Origin: a virus
Lineage: Duplodnaviria; Heunggongvirae; Uroviricota; Caudoviricetes
Reading direction: 5' to 3' (one strand)
Length of the DNA: 37,726 nt
IMG/VR virus record: IMGVR_UViG_2711768052_000002
Part shown: positions 1 through 20,118 of the stretch, one piece after another
How positions within the stretch are numbered: the first letter of the stretch is position 1
Layout of the letters: every line of letters begins with the position of its first letter
Made by a program: the position numbers and the translations under genes
Notes under the pieces: generated by a model
Told to the model about the DNA's origin: nothing
What the model saw: the letters and a program-made list of their open reading frames with translations, nothing else
Databases searched by the model: none

Positions 1-142
1 CATATTACGTGGGTAGGATCACGCAGGGGTCGGCCCATTTGAGCTTCAGATAGGAACGTTTGAATTCCTTTCACAAAATACATCACATACTGAACGTGAA
101 CATTCCCACTTTGATCTTAAGGCCAAAAAGTATGCAGGACTA

Positions 143-871
143 ATGATTTTTAGGGATAGCTTGAGAGTATTACCTTATGGTCGAGTAGATAATGATTTCT
201 TCCAGATAGAAGAAAGACGTTCATGGAATGCAGGGCGATATTATTGGTCTAATAGAAGGATTTTTGGTTATATTGGAATTACTCAATCCAGTAATAAAGA
301 GCTGAAAGATAAGTCGGGGAGAGAGGGATTCATAAGAAACCAGGCTGCAAGAGAACTGAAAACTATTATATCTAATTTGTTAACTGAACTTGCTGATAGA
401 TTTTTTGGTTCACGTTCTGATGACCGTAAAGAGCTTTTAGAACAAGTTAAGCGTGAAAAAGAGTTAAGAAAATCTGCTCAACAACAAGCTCGAAAATCAA
501 CACAAAAAAGTTTTTCAGAAGCTTTGAAGAATCAGACACCAGTTCTTGATGCTTCCTTGGAGGCTGTTAAAAGGCTGAAAACTAAGCTTGATAAAACTGA
601 TGGTTCGTTAGATTTAAACTATCTTAAAATTATAGACAGTGATCTTACAAACTTAGATGCGTTGCGCAGTGAAATTAAAACGCCTATCAAACCTCCAAAA
701 CTTGGAATGTATGAAGAGAAATATAGAGACTACAGAGATAAATTTAATGAGTTCTCTGCGTATATTCTACAAATGAAGTTAGCAATTAATAAACTTGATT
801 CTGAATTAAATAAACTTGAGCCTTCATTGTCAGCGAAAAATCACCTTGAAAAAAAATCAAGGTATTATTAA
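143..871 (+). CDS. N-terminal coiled-coil/sensor-like segment of a histidine-kinase-like protein (probably the 5' part of one gene continued in 816..1862 after a frameshift)
   Basis: ATG at 143 follows an in-frame stop at 14..16; Lys/Glu-rich heptad-like sequence (ELLEQVKREKELRKSAQQQARKS); ORF ends right after an A8 run (~848..855) while the downstream histidine-kinase frame is already open from ~810. Confidence 0.45.
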   Translation: MIFRDSLRVLPYGRVDNDFFQIEERRSWNAGRYYWSNRRIFGYIGITQSSNKELKDKSGREGFIRNQAARELKTIISNLLTELADRFFGSRSDDRKELLEQVKREKELRKSAQQQARKSTQKSFSEALKNQTPVLDASLEAVKRLKTKLDKTDGSLDLNYLKIIDSDLTNLDALRSEIKTPIKPPKLGMYEEKYRDYRDKFNEFSAYILQMKLAINKLDSELNKLEPSLSAKNHLEKKSRYY

Positions 872-1862
872 TTCTAAACTAACTAAGTTTAATAACACGA
901 TAGAGGAGAAGATACATTCTCTTTTAAAAAAATGGGCCGATGAAATAAAGGTTGATCGAAGTGATTATTATGCTAAAACTATATCAGTTGTTGATTCAAT
1001 AGATAATGATTCACAAATTGAAAATGTGTTTAATTTGCTCGATAGTTTATATGTTGAGTCAGTTGATACCCTAACTTTCAAATATCAATCAATAATAAAA
1101 GGTCTCGATAGATTATTTGAAGGTATAAACTTAGATTCAGCATTCTCATTATCTGAAGAAGAACGCTCATATTTTGAAGAAAAAGCTAAAAGTTTAAACG
1201 CGCTTGCACAGTTAGGTATTAGTGTTGAGATAATATCTCATGAACTTGAAGAAATGGATTCTATGGTAACCAGAGGACTAAACTCTCTTCCTACTTCTGT
1301 AAAAGAACACCCTGGTTTTTCATTGGCGTTAAATGCTCACAGATCGCTTACTCAACAAATACGTTTCTTATCACCTTTGAAAATATCAGGTTATCAATCC
1401 AGGCAGAGAATAACTGGAAAAAATATCATGGATTATGTCCTGAAGTTCTTTGGGGAGCGTTTCGAACGGCAACGAATAACTATTGAATTTAGTGAAGAGT
1501 TTAAGCAAATCGCAATAACAGATATACCATCAAGGATCTATCCTGTTTTTACTAATATTATCAACAATGCAATGTATTGGGTCAGTCTGTCAAATAATAG
1601 GCTCATAAAGATTGGTTTTGTGAATTCTTTGGTTATCATAGCAAATTCTGGTCCGGCAATTGATACCGATGATATCCCGCGACTATTTGAACTATTTTAT
1701 AGCAAAAGAGCAAATGGACATGGGGTAGGTCTGTATCTATGTCGAGAAAACCTTGCTGTTGCACATCATAAAATATGGTATTCAGAACCTGATGAAGGCG
1801 ATAACTATTTAATAAAAGATGGCGCTAATTTTGTGATCCAGTTCAATGGAGTGGAGTTCTAA
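816..1862 (+). CDS. histidine kinase catalytic core (HisKA-like H-box + HATPase_c/GHKL ATPase)
   Basis: H-box-like IISHELEEMDS; N-box-like FTNIINNAMYW; G1/F/G2 region ANSGPAIDTDDIPRLFELFYSKRANGHGVGLYLCRENL. Track start is a TTG; the first ATG in this frame is ~145 codons in, so the true N-terminus is probably supplied by ORF 143..871. Confidence 0.6.
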   Translation: MSLHCQRKITLKKNQGIINSKLTKFNNTIEEKIHSLLKKWADEIKVDRSDYYAKTISVVDSIDNDSQIENVFNLLDSLYVESVDTLTFKYQSIIKGLDRLFEGINLDSAFSLSEEERSYFEEKAKSLNALAQLGISVEIISHELEEMDSMVTRGLNSLPTSVKEHPGFSLALNAHRSLTQQIRFLSPLKISGYQSRQRITGKNIMDYVLKFFGERFERQRITIEFSEEFKQIAITDIPSRIYPVFTNIINNAMYWVSLSNNRLIKIGFVNSLVIIANSGPAIDTDDIPRLFELFYSKRANGHGVGLYLCRENLAVAHHKIWYSEPDEGDNYLIKDGANFVIQFNGVEF

Positions 1863-1863
1863 T

Positions 1864-3612
1864 ATGACAGTGGCAAATTATAATTCTCTTGTCCAGAAAA
1901 CTTTCTGCGAAAATGCAATTCGTTCCGTTGTCATGATTGATGACGATTTTCTGACGTATTCTGAATCAATCAGGGCGTTGAATAACGAAGTTGATTTAGA
2001 CTACAACAAAATTGACTCATCTAAACGAGCCGCTACTCTTGAGAGCTTTTTTCAATCTAAAAATATGATTTGTGATGTTGACAATGGTTCTGTTAATTTC
2101 GATGTGGATCGGATTAGAAAATCAGATCTTATTATTGTAGATTATCATCTTGATAATAATGCACCTGATAAAACACTTAAACCATTACAAGATTTGAAAG
2201 ACTCCGATCATTTAAATATGATTGTAATATATACTAGAGAGAATTTAGAAACGGTTTGGATGCAGATATCATCGACTCTCAAAGGTGCTCTGGATATCAA
2301 CAGCTTGATCATTGACTACGATAATGAAGATGTCCAAAGTTATTGGGAAGACGTTGTATTACCGAACTTAAATGATAATGGTAATAAAGCTCTCACAAGA
2401 GATGAAACAATAGCCTATATTAAAGACAGTAAGCCTTGTAGAAGAATTAAAAGATTAATACATGATGATGCTGTGTTGGAGGATCAAAAGGATAAAAACT
2501 TCATTGCAAAAATGATTGCAGAATATGCTGTGTCTAGAAATGCAATTATTTCTAGCAACACATCTGGCAATGTCATTCGGGGTGATGAAAGCGGAGTAAA
2601 ATGGATTCAATGTGGTAATATCTTTGTCTCCCTATTTCATAAGGTTCAAGATGATCATGAAAACGATGGAGATAGGATTTGGCAAACTCTCAATGATTCT
2701 CTCATTGAATGGAAACCATCTTATTATCAGTTAATAAAATCTGAAATTCAGAATGCAATCGAAGCTGAGGCTTTATCTTTTGTAAATCATTTGGCTAACG
2801 ATCATTACGGTCAAGCTGCGTGGTTAAATGAGATATTAAAATCAGACTCGCCTGATATTAGATGTAGAAATATTGACTTTGTATTTGGTAATTTATCAGA
2901 AGAGCTTTATCAAAGACTTAAAAATAATAATACGCTGGATGAATTTATCAAAAGTGTTTTTGATAGCTATTCAAATGAATACGCTAACAGCGGAGTTGCT
3001 GCATTGCTCCAATATTGCTCTTCAAAAATGGATCTGCCATCAAATAATGATACTTATCACGAAATGTATCATGCTTTAAATATGAATTTGTCTTCAAAGA
3101 ATTTTGAAGATGGTCATATTTCTACTGGCACTATTTTCTTTGATACAGAGTCGAACAAATGGTATTTATGTGTATCTGCGGCATGTGATTTGGTTCCTAC
3201 TCAGGGTAACGACCCTCACCATGTAAGATTAAGTCCGCACAGGCTCATTAAAGTTCTGGAGCTTTTTAACGCCAGTCAGAGTAAAGCATTGCCATTTGCT
3301 GAACATTCGAAATATATATATGTAATGCATAAAAATCAAAGAAAATATCTCTCTATTTTCGAAGGGGATAAAACGCTTCCTGTTGTTGATTATATGGTGG
3401 TGTTGAATCATGGAACAACAGTTGATGGCGAAGAAAAAAATATTATTTCTGCCGTGTTTTTAAGTAATATGGATGGCAACGTGCAAAATGTTCCTGTCCG
3501 ACTCAAACTTAAATCTCAACTGAGAACTGGTTATGCAGAAAGATATCAGGCTATAGCGTCTCAGTATAGCTCAAGGATTGGTGTGGATTATGTATCAATG
3601 ATGCTACCATAA
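1864..3612 (+). CDS. receiver (REC)-like domain protein with ~430-aa C-terminal domain of unknown function (candidate effector)
   Basis: N-terminal receiver-like motifs: VVMIDDDF (acidic pocket), DLIIVDYHLD (candidate phospho-Asp), MIVIYTREN (conserved Thr). Start placed at ATG 1864, just after the upstream stop with GGAG upstream; track alternative is ATG 1846. No recognisable motif in the C-terminal two thirds. Confidence 0.55.
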   Translation: MTVANYNSLVQKTFCENAIRSVVMIDDDFLTYSESIRALNNEVDLDYNKIDSSKRAATLESFFQSKNMICDVDNGSVNFDVDRIRKSDLIIVDYHLDNNAPDKTLKPLQDLKDSDHLNMIVIYTRENLETVWMQISSTLKGALDINSLIIDYDNEDVQSYWEDVVLPNLNDNGNKALTRDETIAYIKDSKPCRRIKRLIHDDAVLEDQKDKNFIAKMIAEYAVSRNAIISSNTSGNVIRGDESGVKWIQCGNIFVSLFHKVQDDHENDGDRIWQTLNDSLIEWKPSYYQLIKSEIQNAIEAEALSFVNHLANDHYGQAAWLNEILKSDSPDIRCRNIDFVFGNLSEELYQRLKNNNTLDEFIKSVFDSYSNEYANSGVAALLQYCSSKMDLPSNNDTYHEMYHALNMNLSSKNFEDGHISTGTIFFDTESNKWYLCVSAACDLVPTQGNDPHHVRLSPHRLIKVLELFNASQSKALPFAEHSKYIYVMHKNQRKYLSIFEGDKTLPVVDYMVVLNHGTTVDGEEKNIISAVFLSNMDGNVQNVPVRLKLKSQLRTGYAERYQAIASQYSSRIGVDYVSMMLP

Positions 3613-3684
3613 TTATTATATTTTAGGCGTGGTGATTTTTTTTTCGCCATGCCTATTTTATATTTATCATCACAATGATGTTGT

Positions 3685-4101
3685 TTATTTTTGTTTAAGT
3701 CTTCTAAGCTTCATGCATTCTAATGAGAATAATAATAGAGTTGTGCTGTATATAAAGCCAGAGTTAGTTAATAACTTTAAATTTAATGCTTCAGGATTTT
3801 CACTGAGAAAGTGAAAGGCATAAACTAAGTATACAGCTAAAGTAGCCGTTCCAATTGTTGGTCCAATATCGCCTTGATCATGAGGTTCAAGGTTTACATT
3901 GAACTTGAAGATTAGCCATTCAAATCCCCAAGTAAAAAAAACAACTAATATCATGGCTGCGAATAATTTCGCGATGTTATCTGCTGATGGATTCATCAGA
4001 ACAGATTGTTTCTGAAAAAATTCACAAAGTGAGAGTCCGAAAAAAATAAAAAAAAGTGGTCTGGAACTAAATTTTTCAAAAACTTTGAATAGGGTTTCCA
4101 T
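3685..4101 (-). CDS. small integral membrane protein, hypothetical
   Basis: 138-aa ORF with 3-4 hydrophobic stretches (LFFIFFGLSL, AAMILVVFFTWGFEWLIF, TATLAVYLVYAF, IYSTTLLLF); AT-rich; convergent with the kinase/receiver pair. Confidence 0.45.
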   Translation of the reverse strand: METLFKVFEKFSSRPLFFIFFGLSLCEFFQKQSVLMNPSADNIAKLFAAMILVVFFTWGFEWLIFKFNVNLEPHDQGDIGPTIGTATLAVYLVYAFHFLSENPEALNLKLLTNSGFIYSTTLLLFSLECMKLRRLKQK

Positions 4102-4139
4102 TTTCTTTACCTTCAGGATTATATTAGCTATTCTGATAC

Positions 4140-5411
4140 TTAGGCTACCAGAGCATTTGATCTTTGAGCTTGAACGTAATCACTCCACCATTGCATCAAA
4201 CTCTGTCGCTCTATCAGATATTCTGCACGATTGTATGCTGCGATAATTTCATCTTTTTTCGAGTGGGCAAGCGCTGCCTCAAGAACTTCAGCTCTGAATT
4301 TACCAGACTCCTCTGCCGCTGTTCGTGCAATAGAACGCATACCGTGAGCTACAAGCTCGCCTCCGAACCCCATTCGGATGATAGCTGCGTTGGCTGTTTG
4401 TTCATGCATATGATTAAGAGGCGCTTTTATGCTGGGGAAAACCCATTCTCTATGCCCACTTATTGATTTCATTAATTCAAGGATGCGCAAAGCTTCTTTA
4501 CTCAAAGGAACTTTGTGAAGCTTTTTCATTTTCATGAAATCAGCAGGAATGTTCCAAATGCTGTTGGTTGTATCAATATCAGACCACCTTGCGCGAACGG
4601 CTTCACCCGGACGAACCCATGTCAACAATTGCCATTCAATTAGCATACGTGTTTCCAACCGGATTGACGCATTCGTCAAAGATTCCATAAACCTTGGCAA
4701 TTCGCTTGGGGGAAGGGCAGGCATATTTTGCTTTTTTGGTTTACTGAATCTTTGACCAAGGTTGTCAGCCGGGTTGAACTCAATAAGTTCTTCAGTAGCT
4801 GCCCACCGGAAGATTTCATTCAGACGTGAAATGATACGGCGTAGAGTTTCCAATACGCCTCGTTGCTCAATAGGATCAAGGTGTTGTTTTAAGAGCTTAG
4901 GTCGGATCTCATTGATAGGGACATTACCCAGACCGGGAAAGACATTTCTCTCTAAGCTGCGCCAGATGTCTGCTGCATGGTCTTGTGAGATACCTGATGT
5001 CTTTACCTTCTCATCTAACCATTTCCGCGCTACGGCTTGGAGAGTGTGCTCAGTAGCACTCTTTAATGCCTTCGCCTTATCGTTGTTATGGATTTGGGGA
5101 TCAACACCATTTGCCAGAAAGGAGAGATATTCATCACGTAAGGCTCTGGCTCTTGCAAGGGTAAGGTGAGGATATGTCCCAAGGCTCATTTTGGTTCTTT
5201 TCTTGCTCACTGGTACTGCATACCTGAAATACCAATTTTTCTTGCCTCCTTTCGCCAAAGGAGCGATTCGTAGAATCAGACCATCACCGTCAAACAAGTT
5301 GATTTCTTTATCGGCTGGCTTGGTGCTTTTGATTTCAGTGTCAGTGAGCTTCTTAGCGATTTTTGCCATTTTGGGACCCTCGGTTTTTGGACCCTTCTTA
5401 GTGGGTCCCAT
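4140..5411 (-). CDS. int: tyrosine-type site-specific integrase, P4 family
   Basis: N-terminal arm-binding signature LTDTEIKSTKP...LFDGDGLILRI...KNWYFRY typical of P4/CP4-57 IntA-type integrases; C-terminal catalytic region (HGMRSIARTAAEESG, AAYNRAEY); sits next to the ssrA 3' fragment. Confidence 0.9.
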   Translation of the reverse strand: MGPTKKGPKTEGPKMAKIAKKLTDTEIKSTKPADKEINLFDGDGLILRIAPLAKGGKKNWYFRYAVPVSKKRTKMSLGTYPHLTLARARALRDEYLSFLANGVDPQIHNNDKAKALKSATEHTLQAVARKWLDEKVKTSGISQDHAADIWRSLERNVFPGLGNVPINEIRPKLLKQHLDPIEQRGVLETLRRIISRLNEIFRWAATEELIEFNPADNLGQRFSKPKKQNMPALPPSELPRFMESLTNASIRLETRMLIEWQLLTWVRPGEAVRARWSDIDTTNSIWNIPADFMKMKKLHKVPLSKEALRILELMKSISGHREWVFPSIKAPLNHMHEQTANAAIIRMGFGGELVAHGMRSIARTAAEESGKFRAEVLEAALAHSKKDEIIAAYNRAEYLIERQSLMQWWSDYVQAQRSNALVA

Positions 5412-5578: not shown

Positions 5579-6397
5579 CTATCTGTTTTTATTAAAATCA
5601 TGCTCATCCATAAAATCTGCGTAGCTTTTGCGTATCCTTTCTAGGACAACCTGTGTCCAACACTGTTTGGATGTGAAAAGAATATCTATGTCTAAAATTA
5701 GATCTAAGCCATTTCCGTAAAAAGATACGCTCTTAAATTCTGTTGTGAAAATTTTCTTTCTTTTCTTATTGTTTACATCTCTATATTCAAGGATAAGGTC
5801 CGGCCCTATAAACGATGAGATGGAGGTGGTTACAAGATAATTACCAATTAATTCTGGCACCAATGGGGGAAATGGTATGGTTGTTTTCTCTTTGTCTTTA
5901 ATATTCGGAGTTATAAATTCTATCAAAGTTCCTTTTTTTTGAAAGCTATTATGTTTTTGCGGACCTCTACCAAAAATATCAACATTCAAGAAGTTATTGT
6001 TGTCTTTGATTGTAAAAAACTCTTCATTTTGCAAAAATATCTCATGTGATTTTTGTGTGTTGTTATTATCTATTTTGAATTTGTTTATCTTAATATATTT
6101 CTCATACTCTTCAGACCAGTAGTGATTTATTTTTATAGCTGGGCCAAGACCTATGTTGAGAAGCTCTATATTCAAAGTGGTTGGTGATATTTCTATGTTC
6201 TTAAATAATTTCAAGTTATCTCTGTGCATCCATGTGAATTTTGTATTCTTAGGTAAAATTTGAGGTTTGTTTGAAATTATTCTTTGCTGCCATGTTTGGT
6301 ACATTGCAAAAAATGCAATTATGACACTTATTATGGCTATGAAGTCGGTAGTGGTAATTGAGTAACCTAACATTTTTATTAAATCTGTGTTATTCAT
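5579..6397 (-). CDS. hypothetical membrane-anchored protein (single N-terminal TM helix), AT-rich cargo gene
   Basis: 272-aa ORF; N-terminal hydrophobic helix FIAIISVIIAFFAMY then a Lys/Asn-rich soluble domain; located between the ssrA att fragment and the prophage integrase. Confidence 0.5.
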   Translation of the reverse strand: MNNTDLIKMLGYSITTTDFIAIISVIIAFFAMYQTWQQRIISNKPQILPKNTKFTWMHRDNLKLFKNIEISPTTLNIELLNIGLGPAIKINHYWSEEYEKYIKINKFKIDNNNTQKSHEIFLQNEEFFTIKDNNNFLNVDIFGRGPQKHNSFQKKGTLIEFITPNIKDKEKTTIPFPPLVPELIGNYLVTTSISSFIGPDLILEYRDVNNKKRKKIFTTEFKSVSFYGNGLDLILDIDILFTSKQCWTQVVLERIRKSYADFMDEHDFNKNR

Positions 6398-6436
6398 GTG
6401 AAATCTCTACTTCCAATCAGAAGTAGAGATTATCAT

Positions 6437-7612
6437 TTAATTAGTACAATTTATCAAATGATTGTGTGTGCTATTGTTATCATAATCTTTAAGATAACGG
6501 CCGTAATGCCTAAATAGCATTTCTGGTCCTTTATGCCCCATTTGAGCGGCTAACCAAAACAAATTAACACCTTGACTAATGTGTTTTGTAGCAAATGTAT
6601 GTCTAGTTTGATAAGGATTACGGTAACGGACTCCGGCTTTACGTAAAGTTGGCACCCATGCCTTCTTTCTTATGGCGTCTGCGCTGGCCCAAGGTTTATT
6701 GGTTTTTGGATCTTCAAAGACAGTCGCGTCCTTCATGAAAGTGAACGGTTTCTGATTTATTAGTGCAGACATTGCTTCATCTGTCAGTTCAACTTTTCGA
6801 GTACCTGCTTTTGTTTTGGTACCTTTGATTACACCAACAACACTGGCGCTCTGGACGTGGGCAGTCCTCCCTACAAAGTCAATATCACGCCATCTAAGGG
6901 CACATAATTCAGAACTACGCAGACCTGTATTTATAGCGAACCGGAACAGATTCTCCCATTGTTTGTTTCCGGCTGCTGCTAGTAATGCATCAACTTCTGC
7001 TGGTGATAGCGGATCAACCACGTAGCGGCTTTCTGCTTCTGACTTATCACTTTGGTAGCGCGAAGCAGTTACCAACGATACGGGGTTAATTTGAAGTACC
7101 CCATCGGTTACGGCTTCATCAAGTGCTGACCGCAGGAAAGATAACTGGTTGCGAATTGTTTTTAAGGTCGTTTTCTGGCTTTGAATCCACGCTTTCAGGA
7201 TTGCTGGTGTTAATTCACTTGCAGAGCAAATGTGGAGTGAGGCTAACGCACTACGGCATTTTTTATAACCACCAATCGTAGAGGGTGAAAGTTTTCTCGT
7301 TTCGCAGATTTCAAGGTATTCGTCCAAGTACATTTTTACCGTTTTGCCTGCAGCAGCATTACCAAAAATTTTCAAACGAGCAGAACGGGGAAAATATTCC
7401 GCATAAATGAATGTTCCCCTTTCGATCTTATTATGAATTTCACCGAGTGTGCGCTCGGCGTATTTTATGTTCTTTGGTGTTACTTCCAGATTGGAAAGAG
7501 GCTCACGACATTTAACTCCTTTGTAGGTGAAAGTTATATTGATCGTTTCGCCCTGGCGGTGTTTCCTGATTGTTACGCCGCGCGGTAGTTTGAGCAGTTT
7601 TGTCTGGCCCAT
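6437..7612 (-). CDS. int: tyrosine-type integrase, lambda family
   Basis: 391 aa; catalytic-domain motifs (GLRSSELCALRWRDID, HKGPEMLFRHYGRYL with catalytic Tyr context, RHTFATKHI); 5' end overlaps the upstream xis-like ORF as in lambda. Confidence 0.9.
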   Translation of the reverse strand: MGQTKLLKLPRGVTIRKHRQGETINITFTYKGVKCREPLSNLEVTPKNIKYAERTLGEIHNKIERGTFIYAEYFPRSARLKIFGNAAAGKTVKMYLDEYLEICETRKLSPSTIGGYKKCRSALASLHICSASELTPAILKAWIQSQKTTLKTIRNQLSFLRSALDEAVTDGVLQINPVSLVTASRYQSDKSEAESRYVVDPLSPAEVDALLAAAGNKQWENLFRFAINTGLRSSELCALRWRDIDFVGRTAHVQSASVVGVIKGTKTKAGTRKVELTDEAMSALINQKPFTFMKDATVFEDPKTNKPWASADAIRKKAWVPTLRKAGVRYRNPYQTRHTFATKHISQGVNLFWLAAQMGHKGPEMLFRHYGRYLKDYDNNSTHNHLINCTN

Positions 7613-14713: not shown

Positions 14714-15709
14714 GTGACCGTGAGAGCACTACTGACCCCTGAAATTGCCCCGCGTATGGGGATCGTATTGTTCAGACCAGGTTCAGAGCTGATGCCCCTG
14801 TTTATGCAGGGGCGTGTACTGCTGGAGCCTGAGCCGGAACGTTATTCATCTTTCGCCAGTGGTGCCGTTCCCGCGGCATCACAACCGCTGGCGGATGATC
14901 CTGCTGTTCGGGCCGTGTTCCGCAATGAGGCAGTGATCCGTCGTGCTGGTGGCGTGGAATGTCTTGAAAGCTGGTTACTTCGTGAAAAAGGCTGCCAGTG
15001 GCCTCATTCCGACTGGCACAGCGAGAACATGACCACAATGCGACACGCTCCGGGCGCAATCCGTCTGTGCTGGCACTGTGATAACCAGCTGCGCGATCAG
15101 TTCACGGAACGGCTGGAATCAATGGCAACGGATAACTGTGCCCGCTGGGTGTTGTCTGTTGTGCGTCGGGATCTCGGTTTTGATGATAGTCACGTTGTGA
15201 CAATGCCGGAACTGTGCTGGTGGCTGATTCGTAATGACCTGGCGGATGCCTTACCGGAAAGTGCAGCCCGTAAGGCACTGAGATTACCAAAGCCTGTTGT
15301 GCCGTCTGTCACCCGGGAAAGTGACCTTGTGCCTTCGGTTCCTGCCACCAGCATCATCCAGGATAAGGCAAAAAAGGTGCTGGCGCTGAAAGTGGATCCG
15401 GAGTCGCCGGAGTCTTTTATGTTACGCCCAAAACGTCGCCGCTGGGTTAATGAGAAGTACACGCGCTGGGTTAAGACACAGCCGTGTGCATGTTGTGGAA
15501 AGCCCGCTGATGATCCCCACCACCTGATAGGCCACGGTCAGGGGGGAATGGGTACAAAAGCGCATGACCTCTTTGTGTTGCCTTTGTGCAGAAAGCATCA
15601 CGACGAGCTGCATGCGGATACCGTGGCATTTGAAGAGAAGTATGGCTCCCAGCTGGAGCTGATATTTCGTTTTATCGATCGTGCGCTGGCAATTGGCGTG
15701 CTGGCCTGA
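14714..15709 (+). CDS. DUF968-like protein (C-terminal Cys/His zinc-binding, HNH-like)
   Basis: C-terminal CACCGKPADDPHHLIGHGQGGMGTKAHDLFVLPLCRKHHDELH; common in the nin region of lambdoid prophages. Confidence 0.5.
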   Translation: MTVRALLTPEIAPRMGIVLFRPGSELMPLFMQGRVLLEPEPERYSSFASGAVPAASQPLADDPAVRAVFRNEAVIRRAGGVECLESWLLREKGCQWPHSDWHSENMTTMRHAPGAIRLCWHCDNQLRDQFTERLESMATDNCARWVLSVVRRDLGFDDSHVVTMPELCWWLIRNDLADALPESAARKALRLPKPVVPSVTRESDLVPSVPATSIIQDKAKKVLALKVDPESPESFMLRPKRRRWVNEKYTRWVKTQPCACCGKPADDPHHLIGHGQGGMGTKAHDLFVLPLCRKHHDELHADTVAFEEKYGSQLELIFRFIDRALAIGVLA

Positions 15710-15726
15710 TTTGGTGGAGAAAGTTG

Positions 15727-16092
15727 ATGCGTGATATTCAGATGGTTCTTGAGCGTTGGGGAGCATGGGCGGCGAGTGATAGTTCAGGCGTTGACTATTC
15801 ACCTATAGCTGCTGGGTTTAAGGGACTTCTTCCCTATACCAGCAAGAAACGCTTGGCTTGTTCGGATAGTGATGCATTAATTATTGAAGGTTGTCTTGCT
15901 CGTCTAAAGCAAAAAAGACCTTATGAGCATTCGCTTCTTGTGGCACATTATTTATACAGAATATCCAAGCGTAAGATTGCAAAGGCGCGTGGAAAGGATG
16001 AGAAATTGATACGTATAGAAATACAGCTAGCCGAAGGATTTATTGATGGCTGCCTTTCCATGCTAGATCTAACATTAGATTTGGACGTTTAA
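15727..16092 (+). CDS. Q: late-gene antiterminator Q (phage 82/21 type)
   Basis: N-terminus MRDIQMVLERWGAWAA and overall size match the recalled phage-82-type Q family; ATG 15727 preferred over the track's TTG 15724. Confidence 0.8.
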   Translation: MRDIQMVLERWGAWAASDSSGVDYSPIAAGFKGLLPYTSKKRLACSDSDALIIEGCLARLKQKRPYEHSLLVAHYLYRISKRKIAKARGKDEKLIRIEIQLAEGFIDGCLSMLDLTLDLDV

Positions 16093-16093
16093 T

Positions 16094-16118
16094 AATACGC
16101 CCCATGCAGGGGCGTATT
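16094..16118. terminator. perfect hairpin between convergent Q and KAP-NTPase genes (possible bidirectional terminator)
   Basis: AATACGCCCC-ATGCA-GGGGCGTATT, 10-bp perfect arms; lies between the Q stop (16092) and the minus-strand stop at 16121. Confidence 0.45.
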
Positions 16119-16120
16119 AT

Positions 16121-17452
16121 TTACTGGATGAATGACATTTGATTAATATATTTTATCAATAACTCTCTGGGTGTAGTACTCCAAAAATTTAGGTGTTCAT
16201 AATCAGTATAAACATTGGTGAATTTTTTAAGTTCTTCATCACTTTTAGGGGCAAATCGCTCATTAAGAGTAATACTGTCTTTAATTATTCCGAAGAATAC
16301 AATAGATATTTCAGGAATTTGCGATCTTCTCTCATAAGAATAAGGTATTTCTTTTATGTTAAGCAGATCTGCTAAATGAGATATAGATTCTGCGGTAATT
16401 TCTTGTTTTAGTTTTTCCTTGTCACCAAAGCAATGTATGAAGACAGCTACGACAAAGATCTTATTTATTAAAGGATCACTGTTTTTGTACTCATCGTCGT
16501 TTAATAGTTGAAAAATGTTAAGATTGCGTGAAAAAGTTTGTGTTTCACGTAAGGATAAGTTGGTTCGTTGAATTAAATCACGGATAAATCTACCAGATAA
16601 ACTATTAATTTCATTTAATGATTTTGTCTTGTCTACAAGGTAATTCCAATATATAACAGATGTTTTACATACGACGTGACCATTTATTAAACATGTGTCT
16701 GGAAGCGTGATGGTATATTTTATAAACTTGTCAAGATACTTTTGTGAGTTAATACTATAACCATAAATATGATTTATCGATGCTTTTAATTGTTCTGTGT
16801 TTGTAACTAAAATAAAAAAGACATTATTGATGTCAAAAATGTGTTTTATTGTTTCAATGACATTTGTTGAAAAACTCGGCTTACATCGGTCTAATTCATC
16901 AATTATAATTACTATCTTTTGACTTTCTGAAATGCTTTCGATACAAGATTTAAGTGAATTTATGTTTTTCTCTGATTCCATATGGTCTTCAAGCAAATTT
17001 TCAATAGTCCCATCTATTGCTGCATTGCTTGCTTTCTTCATCGCATCTTGGAATTCTTCGGAAACTTCACTAGCCTCCTGTCGTAAAAACCAACCTGCAC
17101 CAGCTTTTAGTACCGTTTTTAAACCAAAGCGAATTGCAGGAAGAGATCTCTTAATGAAGTGTTGTTTTTCTTCCTCAGGTAAAATGCTGGCAATTGCAGA
17201 GGTTATGAGAAGTAATGGAGATTCTGCATGATCCCCTTTAAAGGCATCAATATAAACAACTTTAGATTCAGTTTCTTGCTCAATAATGAGATTTTTCAGT
17301 TTGATACTAAATTCTGTTTTCCCTGTTCCCCATGCGCCGTCTATTACCAGTGGTGAAATGTCTGCCTCTGGTTTTAGCAACTTGATGATATTTTCAGCGA
17401 TGTTTCTGCGTTGGAACTCGTCACGTTCAGTGAAAGATAGTGTATCTAACAT
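16121..17452 (-). CDS. KAP-family P-loop NTPase (moron cargo)
   Basis: Walker A in KAP form GAWGTGKTEF and Walker B IVIIIDELDRCKP (the DELDR signature typical of KAP NTPases); AT-rich; opposite strand to the phage operons; inserted between Q and the late terminator. Confidence 0.7.
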   Translation of the reverse strand: MLDTLSFTERDEFQRRNIAENIIKLLKPEADISPLVIDGAWGTGKTEFSIKLKNLIIEQETESKVVYIDAFKGDHAESPLLLITSAIASILPEEEKQHFIKRSLPAIRFGLKTVLKAGAGWFLRQEASEVSEEFQDAMKKASNAAIDGTIENLLEDHMESEKNINSLKSCIESISESQKIVIIIDELDRCKPSFSTNVIETIKHIFDINNVFFILVTNTEQLKASINHIYGYSINSQKYLDKFIKYTITLPDTCLINGHVVCKTSVIYWNYLVDKTKSLNEINSLSGRFIRDLIQRTNLSLRETQTFSRNLNIFQLLNDDEYKNSDPLINKIFVVAVFIHCFGDKEKLKQEITAESISHLADLLNIKEIPYSYERRSQIPEISIVFFGIIKDSITLNERFAPKSDEELKKFTNVYTDYEHLNFWSTTPRELLIKYINQMSFIQ

Positions 17453-17575
17453 AATATAAACCTATTAACTCCTACAGTAAAAAACGAATAATACGACTTT
17501 GGGATTAAAAATCATTAACGCGGTCCGCAAAAATTCTTGTAATCTGTTAAGAGTGGTTACTTCGCCACACAGCTT

Positions 17576-17608
17576 AAACCCGCCGTCGAGCGGGTTTTGT
17601 CGTTTTTG
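17576..17608 (+). terminator. tR'-like intrinsic terminator upstream of lysis genes (expected Q antitermination target)
   Basis: AAACCCGC-CGTCGA-GCGGGTTT stem followed by TGTCGTTTTTGTT; located ~140 nt upstream of the holin gene. Confidence 0.5.
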
Positions 17609-17748
17609 TTGCTGGGGATTCGTTGGGCCTGGCCTATCCCGCAATTATCCATTGGTTCGGCTCTTTGACGTTTCCGCTTCTGATTTGCGGTACATGATGT
17701 TCCCTCAATTTGCACCTGCTGTATCAGCGAGGTGAGAGATAACTACAA

Positions 17749-18075
17749 ATGCCTCATAACCCAAATACCTGGTTGGAGTTGGTCCAGAGCTGGTGGCGTG
17801 GAGACACACCGCTGGGCGCAGTGATTATGTCGATTGTTATGGCTGGCTTGCGCATTGCATATTTTGGCGGTGGTGGGGGCTGGAAACGAAAAACGCTCGA
17901 GATTTTGCTCTGTGGTGCTCTGACTCTGACTTTTGCATCCGCTCTTGAGTATGTCGGATGGCCTAAATCTCTTTCTGTTGCCATTGGTGGCGGCGTTGGG
18001 CTAATCGGGGTCGATGCTATTCGTGGGGCTGCAATGAGAGTAATCGGTAATAAGTTTGGTGGCTCTAAGGAGTAA
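17749..18075 (+). CDS. S: holin, lambda S family
   Basis: 108 aa with hydrophobic helices and pattern parallel to lambda S (GAVIMSIVMAGLRIAYFGGGG..., C-terminal charged tail); immediately precedes the endolysin. Confidence 0.7.
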   Translation: MPHNPNTWLELVQSWWRGDTPLGAVIMSIVMAGLRIAYFGGGGGWKRKTLEILLCGALTLTFASALEYVGWPKSLSVAIGGGVGLIGVDAIRGAAMRVIGNKFGGSKE

Positions 18076-18078
18076 TTT

Positions 18079-18555
18079 ATGCAGGTACTAAATTCCCAGC
18101 GTAAAGCTTTCCTCGATATGGTGGCATGGTCAGAAGGAACGGATAACGGGCGACAACCGACACGTAATCACGGTTATGATGTTATTGTTGGCGGCGAACT
18201 GTTTACTGATTACTCTGATCACCCTCGCAAACTTGTCACGCTAAACCCCAAACTCAAATCAACAGCCGCCGGACGTTATCAGCTTCTTTCACGCTGGTGG
18301 GATGCCTACCGTAAGCAGCTTGCTCTGAAAGACTTCTCCCCCAAAAGCCAGGATGCTGTGGCACTGCAACAGATTAAAGAGCGTGGCGCTTTACCGATGA
18401 TTGATCGCGGTGATATTCGTCAGGCTATCGACCGTTGCAGCAATATCTGGGCGTCGTTACCCGGTGCAGGTTATGGTCAGTATGAACATAAAATCGGTGA
18501 TTTGATTGCCCGGTTTAAAGAGGCTGGTGGGGTGGTAAATGAAGCTGAGCTATAA
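18079..18555 (+). CDS. R: endolysin, lambda R-type lytic transglycosylase
   Basis: Near-identity over long stretches to recalled lambda R (NQRKAFLDMVAWSEGTDNGRQ.TRNHGYDVIVGGELFTDYSDHPRKLVTLNPKLKST.AGRYQLLSRWWDAYRKQL...). Confidence 0.9.
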   Translation: MQVLNSQRKAFLDMVAWSEGTDNGRQPTRNHGYDVIVGGELFTDYSDHPRKLVTLNPKLKSTAAGRYQLLSRWWDAYRKQLALKDFSPKSQDAVALQQIKERGALPMIDRGDIRQAIDRCSNIWASLPGAGYGQYEHKIGDLIARFKEAGGVVNEAEL

Positions 18556-19094: not shown

Positions 19095-19721
19095 TCAGTT
19101 GTCAAATGAATATACGTTAAAGGTATATGTCGACATAATTTCACCAAGTACCTCAATACATATACTTTTTTTATGAAAGATACTGGGGAAGGAACTTAGC
19201 TCTTCAAGGCATTGCACATAAGTGCTGATATCACTTGCATCACGTTCAAGGAATTTCACTTGGCCAAAAGAAGGAGTATTAATCCTAGTTCTTTGCTGGA
19301 TTATATGGATAAAATGTGTAGTTGGTGAAACTATTACTCTTGAAATATCGGAAATGATGTCTTCTTGAACTTGCCGATAAAGTAAATCCTTTGGGTAATG
19401 GTGTTTGATCTCGATGGTTGCAACATTGCCATTATGTTCAGACGTTAATATCGACTGGTTATAAAGTGATATGTCAACAGCGCCGATACCGAGTTTTGGA
19501 TGCTCACTTAAAGCAGTTAGTGTGCTGATTTGATTGAGAATAACAACTAACTCATCACGTATTTGAGTTTCATGTTTGCGATTGTAGAAGTAGCAATTCA
19601 GTTCATTTAACTTTTTATGCATCCTATCGTGACTAATTGCTTCGATCAGTAAATCCTGAATCATACTTTTCTCTAGGTAATCCGAACGGTTGTAAGTGAC
19701 AGTATTGTGCTGGCATGTCAT
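19095..19721 (-). CDS. hypothetical protein, possible PD-(D/E)xK-type nuclease (moron cargo)
   Basis: 208-aa AT-rich ORF on the strand opposite the phage late genes; GAVDIS...(~20 aa)...VATIEIKHH fits a D...E-x-K nuclease arrangement (tentative). Confidence 0.5.
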   Translation of the reverse strand: MTCQHNTVTYNRSDYLEKSMIQDLLIEAISHDRMHKKLNELNCYFYNRKHETQIRDELVVILNQISTLTALSEHPKLGIGAVDISLYNQSILTSEHNGNVATIEIKHHYPKDLLYRQVQEDIISDISRVIVSPTTHFIHIIQQRTRINTPSFGQVKFLERDASDISTYVQCLEELSSFPSIFHKKSICIEVLGEIMSTYTFNVYSFDN

Positions 19722-19764
19722 TAGTATGTAAAGGTATTGTGAATGCCAGCAAGATAACGAAGTA

Positions 19765-20118
19765 TCATCGATAGAAAAACTTTACGGCCCACTCGTAAAC
19801 CGCTTTGTAAATCGGTTCATGGTAAATACTATCGATACTATTCAGATGTGCGATCATCGCCTCCACAGTTGTAGTGGTTGTTTCTAATATTTCGATTATT
19901 GCAGGGCGGTCATCATCTTCATCGAAGTATTCGAACAGCAGTACAGGTTTACCATGCCATTCAGCATCTGAGACTCTAAGGTTACAACTACCGCTCAACT
20001 CAAAGTGAATTTTGTAATTACCTTCTACAGAATGGCCTACGGGGAAAAAGCATAGGGTGTCATCTTTGTTTAAAAGCCATTCCCATTCATAACTATTCAT
20101 TTGTGAACTCCTGTTCAT
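19765..20118 (-). CDS. hypothetical small acidic protein (moron cargo, upstream partner of 19095..19721)
   Basis: 117-aa AT-rich ORF with RBS GGAG before the ATG; acidic stretch EYFDEDDDRPAIIEILETTTTT; co-oriented and tightly spaced with the downstream 208-aa ORF. Confidence 0.5.
   Translation of the reverse strand: MNRSSQMNSYEWEWLLNKDDTLCFFPVGHSVEGNYKIHFELSGSCNLRVSDAEWHGKPVLLFEYFDEDDDRPAIIEILETTTTTVEAMIAHLNSIDSIYHEPIYKAVYEWAVKFFYR

Follow-up and report, generated by a model that had tools for sequence, protein, structure and literature searches.

A KAP-family P-loop NTPase gene, a candidate single-protein anti-phage defence, carried as a prophage moron between the antiterminator gene Q and the late promoter

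Our analyses of a 37,726-nucleotide stretch of DNA (IMG/VR record IMGVR_UViG_2711768052_000002; referred to here as the window), which derives from an E. coli lambdoid prophage with a contractile tail, have identified a gene for a KAP-family P-loop NTPase located between the antiterminator gene Q and the late-promoter block. We consider it reasonably probable that the prophage expresses this gene in the lysogen and that its product acts as a single-protein anti-phage defence. The positions of the gene, of the different parts of its product and of the neighbouring phage features are summarized in Table 1.

The preliminary description of this DNA had reported an AT-rich minus-strand gene coding for a 443 aa protein of the KAP/P-loop type, and the gene is present exactly in this form. 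Its GC content is 0.325 (GC3 0.26); the corresponding GC values are 0.556 for the DUF968 gene upstream of Q, about 0.52-0.55 for nearby sequences and 0.485 for the window. The Pfam profile KAP_NTPase (PF07693) matches the ORF with E = 6.2e-70 and 236.2 bits (profile positions 1-292 of 293), far above the curated gathering cutoff of 20 bits for this profile. An intact Walker A motif (GxxxxGK[ST]) and an intact Walker B motif (hhhhDE), by which membership in the KAP NTPase family is judged, are both found in the protein. In an alignment of 50 homologues, residues G39, W41, G42, T43, G44 and K45 of Walker A and residues D185, E186, L187, D188, R189 and C190 of Walker B are invariant, as are many other residues of the family core. 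The catalytic NTPase core of this protein is conserved and intact.

Table 1. Features of the KAP locus and its surroundings (positions are those of the window).
Feature	Position	Strand	Basis or details
Q antiterminator gene, 122 aa, convergent with the KAP gene	15724..16092	+	Pfam Phage_antitermQ, E = 2.3e-51; RefSeq annotation in near-identical E. coli prophages
Likely bidirectional intrinsic terminator hairpin	16091..16121	.	Perfect inverted repeat; RNA folding
KAP-family P-loop NTPase gene, PADLOC candidate family PDC-S20	16121..17452	-	ORF of 443 aa, ATG start; Pfam and PADLOC profile matches
Variable all-alpha C-terminal domain, residues 318-443 (126 aa)	16124..16501	-	Homologue identity; profile search
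KAP NTPase domain, residues 15-317	16502..17410	-	Pfam PF07693
Walker B VIIIDELDRC, residues 181-190	16883..16912	-	Regular expression on translation
Conserved helical insert between Walker A and Walker B, residues 93-177 (~85 aa)	16922..17176	-	Homologue identity; model
Walker A GAWGTGKT, residues 39-46	17315..17338	-	Regular expression on translation
KAP upstream region	17453..17506	-	Candidate -10 TATTAT at 17493->17488
Conserved late-promoter block, inferred PR'/QBE/tR'	17507..17607 (inferred PR'/QBE/tR' 17507-17598)	+	Conservation; terminator scan
Lambda-type holin	17749..18075	+	Pfam Phage_holin_3_1, E = 5.7e-25; RefSeq annotation
GH24 endolysin (lysozyme)	18079..18555	+	RefSeq annotation

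Most prokaryotic KAP NTPases typically contain transmembrane (TM) helices. In agreement with the earlier remark that no obvious TM insert is visible, no TM segment was found in the KAP protein (the best 19-residue Kyte-Doolittle mean is 1.35) and no signal peptide was detected, and the protein is predicted to be soluble. The TM-helix feature is not universal among KAP NTPases, PifA being an example of a protein that lacks it. The gene is carried by 50 of 5426 complete E. coli genomes, in every one of which it is full length, and its dN/dS in comparison with the Salmonella orthologue is 0.13 (in Salmonella LT2 the orthologue may be STM2238, which PMC2653508 lists as a "putative phage protein"). 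These two observations argue against neutrality, and the gene appears to be functional and under purifying selection. An AT-rich gene of this kind could be silenced in vivo.

The proposal in the preliminary description that the gene represents a moron inserted between Q and the late terminator and lysis genes agrees with our comparisons of related phages, and its placement can now be refined, the gene lying upstream of both the late terminator and the late promoter. In PhiR5_1, the Q stop codon directly adjoins the block that begins at position 17507 in the window; the site is empty in this phage and in three further phages, in which the span is ~498 bp, and the slot is also empty in L111. Because related phages that lack the segment have the Q stop codon abutting the late block, the ~1.4 kb from 16093 to ~17506, consisting of the hairpin, a single gene and a short upstream region, is a self-contained moron inserted upstream of PR'. 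Of the characteristics by which morons are recognized in the definition of Hendrix and colleagues, insertion between sites that are adjacent in relatives, deviant GC content and a terminator of its own (here a putative one) are found for this segment, and for a promoter of its own a candidate -10 element is present. The same slot contains other cargo in other elements: a DUF6731 gene together with a small ORF in phage cdtI and two E. coli prophages, and, in a third prophage of E. coli, a gene for a serine protease of the SDH family. All of the slot cargo found is convergent with Q. Foreign composition of the cargo, the splitting of genes that are adjacent in relatives and the variability of the occupants are features that this slot shares with known prophage morons and defence hotspots (viz. 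the P2/P4 hotspots and lambda rexAB), of which those of P2 and P4 phages were reportedly described by Rousset et al. in 2022. PADLOC and Pfam searches of the alternative slot cargo, and of the small ORFs located next to the P2-type copies of the KAP gene, gave no defence match except a marginal one to PDC-S48 (1e-4), so that the KAP gene is the one occupant on which the claim of this slot as a defence hotspot is founded; no paper describing the slot as such was found in the literature. The sequence running from Q to the lysis genes is shared between the window and ETEC H10407 at 99.9% identity, and the two prophages differ elsewhere.

The perfect hairpin that had been noted between the KAP gene and Q is indeed present. 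Its arms (16091-16103 and 16109-16121) are 13 bp in length, 100% complementary and separated by a 5-nt loop, and they overlap the stop codons of both genes. The folding energies on the two strands are -20.9 and -21.4 kcal/mol (z of -5.1 and -6.0), none of 200 shuffled sequences folds as well, and the Salmonella and Citrobacter loci also have a hairpin at this place. This hairpin is likely a terminator for both Q and KAP; the terminator scan overlooked it because the T-run rule was applied after the full 13-bp stem, and it was assessed by folding instead. On the other side of the KAP gene, the late block contains a -35 element TTAACG (17515-17520) and a -10 element TGTAAT (17538-17543) of a putative PR', an invariant GCGGTCCGC at 17520-17528, which is a candidate Q-binding element, and a tR'-like terminator stem (17576-17597) followed by a T-run, as detected in the terminator scan. 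The block is retained in PhiR5_1, in cdtI and in the Salmonella, Citrobacter, Klebsiella and Cronobacter loci, and we infer that 17507-17598 represents PR'/QBE/tR'.

An independent minus-strand promoter for the KAP gene, a prospect raised in the preliminary description, can only be proposed: a candidate -10 element is present (Table 1), the GTATTAT motif that includes it being common to the window, Salmonella and Klebsiella, and no convincing -35 element was found in the KAP upstream region. The sole minus-strand match upstream of KAP in a consensus promoter scan, TTTACT-17-TATATT, abuts the ATG and was rejected as the KAP promoter. The scan as a whole gave 8 matches and shuffled sequences gave 7.3, i.e. 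there is no excess. No match was obtained with Rfam for positions 15600-18200 or with a tRNA scan of the window.

The distribution of the family provides the main contextual evidence regarding its function. The possibility had been allowed for that homologues would occur only in housekeeping contexts; they are found in prophage cargo slots, in Type I restriction-modification (R-M) operons and in a satellite-like element. Among 80 IMG/VR loci of the family, 51 are convergent with Q and 26 are in a cI-KAP(-int) arrangement of P2/186-like phages, in which the KAP gene lies on the same strand as cI and int. The Q-linked arrangement is present in six genera (viz. Escherichia, Salmonella, Citrobacter, Klebsiella, Cronobacter, and Enterobacter), across which KAP identity falls to 45% and Q identity remains at least 74%. 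The nearest alleles are those of ETEC H10407 and of a Salmonella prophage remnant, where the gene lies beside an LRR-NEL effector gene. A sister clade occupies a cI-int slot equivalent to that of P2-related Vibrionaceae phages, which has been published as a hotspot of antiviral genes (PMC9122126). In more distant relatives, which are full-length and 36-46% identical, the gene lies within Type I R-M operons, some of them marine, in the order hsdM-hsdS-KAP-hsdR; the extended order hsdM-hsdS-KAP-hsdR-YgjP is seen at about 7-8 of the 20 distant loci, and the 91 neighbour proteins of these relatives include 12 Methylase_S, 8 N6_Mtase and 7 HSDR_N proteins. One further clade is found in a satellite-like integrase-primase-Ash element. 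No close homologue was found among the isolated phage genomes of the phage collection, and a single full-length homologue was detected in 72,556 plasmid records by tblastn, a search that at 1e-6 failed to recover PifA. A partner gene was considered and rejected: no partner gene or antitoxin-like neighbour is conserved across the contexts compared. No paper tying the family by name to R-M embedding was found in the literature. The family thus appears to sit almost only where defence genes accumulate, and a defence function for it is strongly suggested by this genomic context.

Comparison with defence-system catalogues, as the preliminary description had recommended, yielded a full-length match to one PADLOC candidate family and weaker matches, confined to the NTPase core, to PifA and QatA. 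The PDC-S20 model PDLC04956 matches residues 3-442 of the KAP protein (model positions 4-449 of 450) with E = 7.6e-177, and three further PDC-S20 models match it with E values of 4e-51 to 9e-29. The PDC systems are, according to their authors, untested candidates (Payne et al., 2024 preprint, 10.1101/2024.01.29.577857); the literature yielded no paper that mentions PDC-S20, and the string is absent from the text supplements of that preprint. PDC-S20 is, like the KAP gene, a single-gene unit with relatives embedded in Type I R-M operons, an embedding that our analyses have independently confirmed. The "guilt by embedding" (in BREX, DISARM or Type I R-M) by which PDC-S20 is defined holds for the distant Type I R-M relatives, whereas the copy in the window is prophage cargo of the slot between Q and PR' and is not R-M-embedded.

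Among the characterized systems, the PADLOC model for PifA matches residues 7-252 of the KAP protein (E = 1.1e-17; model positions 13-255 of 720). PifA, a KAP NTPase of the F plasmid that aborts T7 infection, resembles the KAP protein in possessing a KAP core, in being devoid of TM helices and in acting as a single protein borne on a mobile element. However, only the NTPase core aligns, full-length homology is absent and the C-terminal two-thirds of PifA have no counterpart in the KAP protein. Four other single-gene KAP NTPases (EF_KAP and three metagenomic proteins), with C-terminal regions of unknown fold, protected E. faecalis, and protection by EF_KAP was dependent on its C-terminal region and on the integrity of Walker B (PLoS Biol 2026, PMC13552941). 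KAP defences that have been validated possess TM helices as well as a C-terminal region of ~320 aa (PMC13552941); in EF_KAP, which is of Gram-positive origin, there are two TM helices and the C-terminal region is 322 aa long, whereas the KAP protein studied here is predicted to be soluble and to have a family-private C-terminal domain of 126 aa. No sequence similarity to RdrA of RADAR or to BrxC of BREX could be detected, the likeness to RdrA being at the level of fold only. The solved RdrA chains, of ~780-850 residues, are roughly double the length of the KAP protein, and RdrA pairs with the deaminase RdrB and BrxC with other BREX proteins, whereas no such partner is located next to the KAP gene. 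QatA and Tmn (a YobI-type transmembrane NTPase) are, like the KAP protein, P-loop NTPases, and both are used in anti-phage defence. The PADLOC match to QatA (E = 6e-12) covers the region around Walker B; the NCBIfam QatA equivalog NF041923 scores 35.3 bits against a cutoff of 600 bits, and there is no qatBCD near the KAP gene, whose neighbours are Q and the PR'/holin region. PADLOC gave no match to the Tmn model, the TM helices of which are also absent, or to any Avs model of the STAND type, and no repeats or effector domain are found in the 443 aa of the KAP protein.

Two regions of the KAP protein figure in the mechanism proposed below. The insert at residues 93-177, with a mean identity of 56% across homologues, is located where canonical KAP NTPases carry their TM helices, but its hydrophobicity is too low for a membrane span. 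Residues 99-116 within it form a predicted cationic amphipathic helix (hydrophobic moment 0.58, net charge +5), and residues 112-154 are a poorly modelled stretch with pLDDT <50. The C-terminal domain has a mean identity of 24%, vs 54-61% in the remainder of the protein, and appears to be fast-evolving. A profile of this domain matched only 66 cluster representatives among 1.84 billion; in every case the match lay at the C-terminal end of a protein of ~440-495 aa or in a shorter fragment. The domain is private to this particular family. Searches of 23 members against Pfam, relaxed to E<=1, gave scattered single matches, none of them consistent, and no recognizable enzymatic effector domain was found in the protein. 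We regard the C-terminal domain as a putative specificity or sensor domain. A PDB sequence search with the family profile gave no match at E<=0.01, and what it gave at E<=10 was noise; the closest solved fold to the model of the protein is RdrA, with the TM-scores of the structural matches being low (0.35-0.45).

From these observations we infer, for the KAP protein, expression in the lysogen, a role in defence, sensing by the C-terminal domain, oligomerization and an effector step. The C-terminal helical domain would recognize a component of an infecting phage. On the analogy of RdrA, BrxC and STAND-like ATPases, this recognition would convert the conserved NTPase core into an oligomer that depends on NTP and that would then abort or block the infection. 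Because the protein has no recognizable effector domain, the outcome that we favour is a PifA-like one, in which the membrane or its energy state may be perturbed via the cationic amphipathic insert, or a phage complex may be sequestered or remodelled in an ATP-driven manner; the lack of both an effector domain and a partner gene makes this killing or blocking step a guess. A more elaborate joint reading, which we hold to be unlikely as a whole, is that of a minimal KAP immune protein whose NTPase module is itself the weapon: the insert 93-177 would be a degenerate remnant of the KAP TM hairpin that drives an NTP-dependent, PifA-like collapse of membrane or energy after C-terminal sensing of a phage protein; the KAP promoter would lie back-to-back with PR'/QBE, so that Q-loaded RNA polymerase would shut the defence off in the prophage's own lytic growth; and the slot between Q and PR' would be an undescribed Enterobacterales defence hotspot, in which new defence genes would be represented by the DUF6731 pair and the serine protease of the SDH family.

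Other explanations for the gene need to be weighed against a defensive role. The KAP NTPase could serve the cycle of the prophage itself, in Q-dependent late transcription, the lysis-lysogeny decision or DNA transactions, and the tight linkage of KAP to one Q/PR' type in six genera, with Q far better conserved than KAP, and the back-to-back arrangement of the KAP upstream region and the conserved PR' block are consistent with such a role. However, relatives with a homologous Q and the same PR' block either lack KAP or carry unrelated cargo in the slot, the family is also present in the P2/186-like cI-int slot, in Type I R-M operons and in the satellite-like element, all without Q, and the composition of the gene is foreign to the phage backbone; a phage-internal role is for these reasons quite improbable. 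A lysogenic-conversion gene with an effect on host physiology or virulence, or a neutral passenger that has no selected function, is an equally improbable reading. Conversion genes such as stx are classically located between Q and the lysis genes, and the nearest alleles, in an ETEC strain and beside a Salmonella effector gene, point in the same direction. Cargo of the stx type is located downstream of PR'/tR' and co-oriented with the late genes, whereas the slot described here is upstream of PR', right behind the stop codon of Q, and all of its cargo is convergent with Q. The absence of a signal peptide and of a TM segment, the dN/dS value together with the intactness of the gene in its E. 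coli carriers, and a distribution extending to marine Type I R-M operons, which is at odds with a role in virulence, speak against the conversion or hitch-hiker reading.

A conflict gene that is not aimed at phages, acting in exclusion of plasmids or mobile elements or as an addiction or stabilization module, is unlikely, if somewhat less so than the two preceding readings. In its favour are the confinement of the family to mobile or defence-type loci, the one plasmid-borne full-length homologue and the original proposal, as cited in PMC13552941, that KAP NTPases act in restriction of foreign DNA. Against it, no cognate antitoxin-like partner is conserved beside KAP, the family is rare on plasmids, and its embedding between hsdS and hsdR and its occupancy of prophage slots match known anti-phage systems best. 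Hence, single-protein anti-phage defence expressed in the lysogen is the explanation that we prefer for the KAP gene.

If the gene is not a defence gene, it is an ordinary annotated prophage accessory gene. If a defence role is confirmed, it would provide the first functional evidence for the PADLOC candidate PDC-S20 and, in a host that is genetically tractable, a KAP NTPase defence that is compact, soluble and made up of a single protein. With no TM helices, partner or recognizable effector, the protein would be a good minimal model for how KAP NTPases proceed from phage sensing to protection, a question that is unsettled even for PifA. The slot between the Q stop codon and PR' holds three or more alternative convergent cassettes, of which two are wholly uncharacterized, and it could be mined for further defence genes, as the P2/P4 hotspots were.

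Our analyses have established that the ORF located between the Q antiterminator gene and the lysis genes of this prophage (the KAP gene) encodes a bona fide KAP NTPase and is a member of PDC-S20, a phage-defence candidate family of PADLOC. The Pfam model KAP_NTPase (PF07693) matches residues 15-317 (E=6.2e-70) and is covered practically in its entirety, and the PDC-S20 model PDLC04956 spans the entire protein (E=7.6e-177). PADLOC models of PifA (E=1e-17, confined to the NTPase core) and QatA (E=6e-12) match far more weakly, the NCBIfam QatA model reaches 35 bits where its cutoff is 600, and the protein is an orthologue of none of PifA, QatA, RdrA, Tmn or Avs. RefSeq already labels it 'KAP family NTPase'. 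The gene is AT-rich (GC 0.325, GC3 0.26), compared with 0.556 for the DUF968 gene two genes upstream and 0.485 for the entire window, and a lambda-type holin gene followed by a GH24 endolysin gene lies beyond it on the plus strand. The protein lacks a transmembrane segment, since the Kyte-Doolittle mean stays at or below 1.35 throughout (19-residue windows). The preliminary description had recognised the AT-rich minus-strand ORF adjoining Q, both Walker motifs, the lack of an obvious transmembrane insert and the perfect hairpin separating the gene from Q; all of these were recovered, and the Pfam and PADLOC matches agree with its reading of a KAP NTPase with a possible role in defence.

Across Enterobacterales, the homologues group tightly and measure about 440–447 aa. 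An alignment of 50 members contains 56 invariant columns, which include Walker A, the DELDRC Walker B, the LSLRE region (L301, R302) and R309. Mean identity to the query is 54–61% for residues 1-315 and only 24% for residues 316-443; a profile of this C-terminal region retrieved no more than 66 of 1.84 billion cluster representatives, always as the C-terminus of proteins of ~440–495 aa or as shorter fragments, and no consistent Pfam match was found for it. Hence, the C-terminal domain is private to the family and fast-evolving. Purifying selection acts on the gene, the dN/dS between the window allele and a 92%-identical Salmonella allele being 0.13 overall (N-terminal part 0.12, C-terminal part 0.22). 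That Salmonella allele (locus L003, S. Typhimurium contig AAYVPS010000009.1) represents a cluster of 2139 members and is located in a degraded prophage, beside genes for an LRR-NEL effector and an Acyl_transf_3/SGNH acyltransferase; we take the locus to resemble the sspH2-oafA remnant of LT2, in which case the allele may be STM2238. The AlphaFold2 model built from the 50-sequence alignment (mean pLDDT 80.6, pTM 0.76) predicts a P-loop core and a C-terminal domain made up entirely of helices, with a further helical stretch inserted between Walker A and B (residues 93-177; pLDDT <50 for 112-154). Within this insert, a cationic amphipathic helix is predicted for residues 99-116 (FIKRSLPAIRFGLKTVLK; hydrophobic moment 0.58, net charge +5); its position corresponds to that of the TM helices in canonical KAP proteins, which is a lead only. 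A sequence search of the PDB revealed no detectable relative, and the best Foldseek matches in the PDB are the RdrA rings of RADAR (E down to 8e-6, TM-scores 0.35–0.45).

The gene was acquired within the interval from the Q stop codon to the inferred late promoter PR' (the Q|PR' slot). In PhiR5_1 the homologous Q gene stops right at the block equivalent to 17507-17598, as it does in 3 further phages whose matching span is only ~498 bp, and this block is also retained in phage cdtI and in Salmonella, Citrobacter, Klebsiella and Cronobacter loci. Its sequence and conservation suggest that it is the PR' region. The extra segment therefore covers ~16093-17506, comprising the hairpin, the KAP gene and the 54 bp 5' of its ATG. 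The earlier placement of a moron between Q and the late terminator and lysis genes stands as regards the insertion, the site being empty in relatives, and is refined in that the insert lies upstream of the late promoter as well. The KAP upstream region stands back-to-back with the PR' block. Alignment of the upstream regions from five genera revealed GTATTAT in three of them and no convincing -35; a consensus promoter scan gave no more hits than shuffled sequence, and its sole minus-strand hit 5' of the gene was rejected because it ends one base before the ATG. The Q/KAP hairpin (~ -21 kcal/mol on either strand) is more stable than 200/200 shuffles. The 9-mer AATAATACG occurs four times in the window (0.22 expected); it makes up both hairpin arms (16091-16099, 16113-16121) and is found again at the opposite end of the insert (17487-17495), overlapping the candidate -10 there. 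Its recurrence could be junction microhomology left by the insertion event, or chance.

Principal features of the window and of comparison loci
Feature	Position	Strand	Remarks
Island ORF	143..871		no Pfam match
Island ORF	816..1862		HEF_HK + HATPase_c
Island ORF	1846..3612		N-terminal Response_reg_2 (PF19192); C-terminus of ~400 aa of unknown type
P4-type integrase	4140..5411	-	
272-aa ORF	5579..6397	-	GC ~0.29; between both integrases
Second integrase	6437..7612	-	within 5579-7612 region
Q antiterminator gene	15724..16092		convergent with KAP gene; Phage_antitermQ E=2e-51
Q/KAP hairpin	16091-16121		perfect 13-bp inverted repeat, 5-nt loop; fills 28-bp gap between both stop codons
KAP gene	16121..17452	-	ATG start; 443 aa
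Walker A	residues 39-46		GAWGTGKT
Walker B	residues 181-190		VIIIDELDRC
Candidate KAP -10	17493->17488	-	within GTATTAT (3/5 genera)
Inferred PR' -35	17515-17520		TTAACG
Invariant motif	17520-17528		GCGGTCCGC; in inferred late promoter block
Inferred PR' -10	17538-17543		TGTAAT
tR'-like terminator	17576-17597		followed by T-run; terminator scan
Cargo pair member	19095..19721	-	208 aa
Cargo pair member	19765..20118	-	117 aa
Alternative Q|PR' slot cargo (other prophages/phages)	L002 1914-3302; L108 3405-4817; L110 3390-4778; L109 3571-4566		convergent with Q

Other cargo also occupies the Q|PR' slot, always convergent with Q. Phage cdtI and two E. coli prophages carry a 313-aa DUF6731 protein together with a small ORF (122–149 aa), another E. 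coli prophage carries a 331-aa SDH-family Clp-fold serine protease, and in one further E. coli prophage the slot is empty. None of this alternative cargo matched PADLOC models; the DUF6731 pair and the protease are candidate accessory or defence genes, as yet uncharacterised. The literature searched does not describe this slot as a cargo hotspot. Among 5426 complete E. coli genomes, a Q of the same type (≥80% of its length matched) is present in 619 and the KAP gene in 50, in all cases full length, 96–99.8% identical and chromosomal. The best full-length match to the Q-KAP-lysis segment is in ETEC H10407 (99.9%). The window is a mosaic prophage, its first 25 kb being covered to at most 82% by any single genome.

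Further AT-rich cargo is present in the window. An island at 1-5411 (GC 0.31–0.37) beside the P4-type integrase includes an unusual kinase-receiver pair on an integrative element (816..1862 and 1846..3612); its ORFs have no PADLOC match, and the 272-aa ORF has none in Pfam or PADLOC. The second integrase is most likely the prophage's own, and the arrangement looks like a tandem integration of two mobile elements. Another minus-strand pair (19095-20118) separates the Rz/Rz1 lysis genes from the HNH/terminase genes, comparable in position to the Tai defence genes of phi80, just 5' of the packaging module (PMC11364771). Neither ORF matches Pfam, NCBIfam or PADLOC, a tblastn search of the phage collection with the 208-aa ORF gave no match, and the ETEC H10407 prophage has other, plus-strand genes at this position.

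Members of the family are found in four genomic contexts. Lambdoid prophages of Escherichia, Salmonella, Citrobacter, Klebsiella, Cronobacter and Enterobacter carry DUF968, Q, KAP (convergent with Q) and lysis genes in that order; the lysis cassettes vary, and across these loci the KAP proteins diverge from 92% down to 45% identity, Q only from 92% to 74%. In P2/186-like prophages of E. coli and Yersinia, cI, KAP and int share one strand, and the co-orientation with the repressor gene suggests that KAP would be expressed in the lysogen; in P2-related Vibrionaceae phages the cI-int slot is an antiviral hotspot (PMC9122126). The Yersinia loci of this type (P2-like prophage, L013/L014, 6494-6976) have an extra 160-aa ORF between cI and KAP, with a marginal PADLOC PDC-S48 match (E=1e-4), which is missing from most of the corresponding E. 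coli loci. The third context is a satellite-like element of Enterobacter (integrase-primase-AAA_25-KAP-Ash). The fourth consists of Type I R-M operons of Shewanella, Alteromonas, Aliidiomarina and marine metagenome-assembled genomes, where full-length relatives (36–46% identity) lie in a same-strand, operon-like run that gene size and Pfam family indicate to be hsdM-hsdS-KAP-hsdR-YgjP. The 91 neighbour proteins of distant relatives include Methylase_S (12), N6_Mtase (8), HSDR_N (7), HsdM_N (7), YgjP-like (6) and Abi_2 (2). Among 80 IMG/VR loci, 51 are Q-convergent, 26 are cI-KAP(-int) and 3 are at a contig edge or elsewhere. No close homologue was found in the isolated phage genomes searched, and the literature searched does not describe the family's confinement to two prophage slots in enterics.

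These observations bear on what the gene does. A phage-internal role tied to Q is improbable, as the family also occurs in contexts without Q and relatives with the same Q and PR' lack KAP. An anti-plasmid or addiction role is unlikely, if slightly less so: no partner gene conserved over all contexts was found, and close homologues are nearly absent from plasmids. That the gene serves virulence or is neutral is again improbable in view of the purifying selection and the R-M contexts of its relatives. Context, composition, selection and catalogue match all agree, and the KAP gene is hence most likely a single-gene, anti-phage conflict module.

E. faecalis is protected by KAP NTPases whose C-terminal regions are uncharacterised, and protection by EF_KAP required the C-terminal region and an intact Walker B motif (PMC13552941). 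PifA, according to the summary in PMC13001434, is a KAP NTPase without TM helices; it makes T7 infection abortive, the membrane being depolarised and nucleotides leaking out. Based on these precedents, we propose that the private C-terminal domain would sense a phage component, that the NTPase core would then adopt an oligomeric state, and that the outcome may either resemble that of PifA, with perturbation of membrane or energy, or be a direct interference driven by ATP. The main weakness of this mechanism is that the protein has no effector domain. The PDC systems are 145 candidates from a 'guilt-by-embedding' screen, labelled untested by their own authors (Payne et al., 2024; 10.1101/2024.01.29.577857); our literature searches found no paper naming PDC-S20 and no functional test of the family. 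The KAP gene would be flagged by current PADLOC models.
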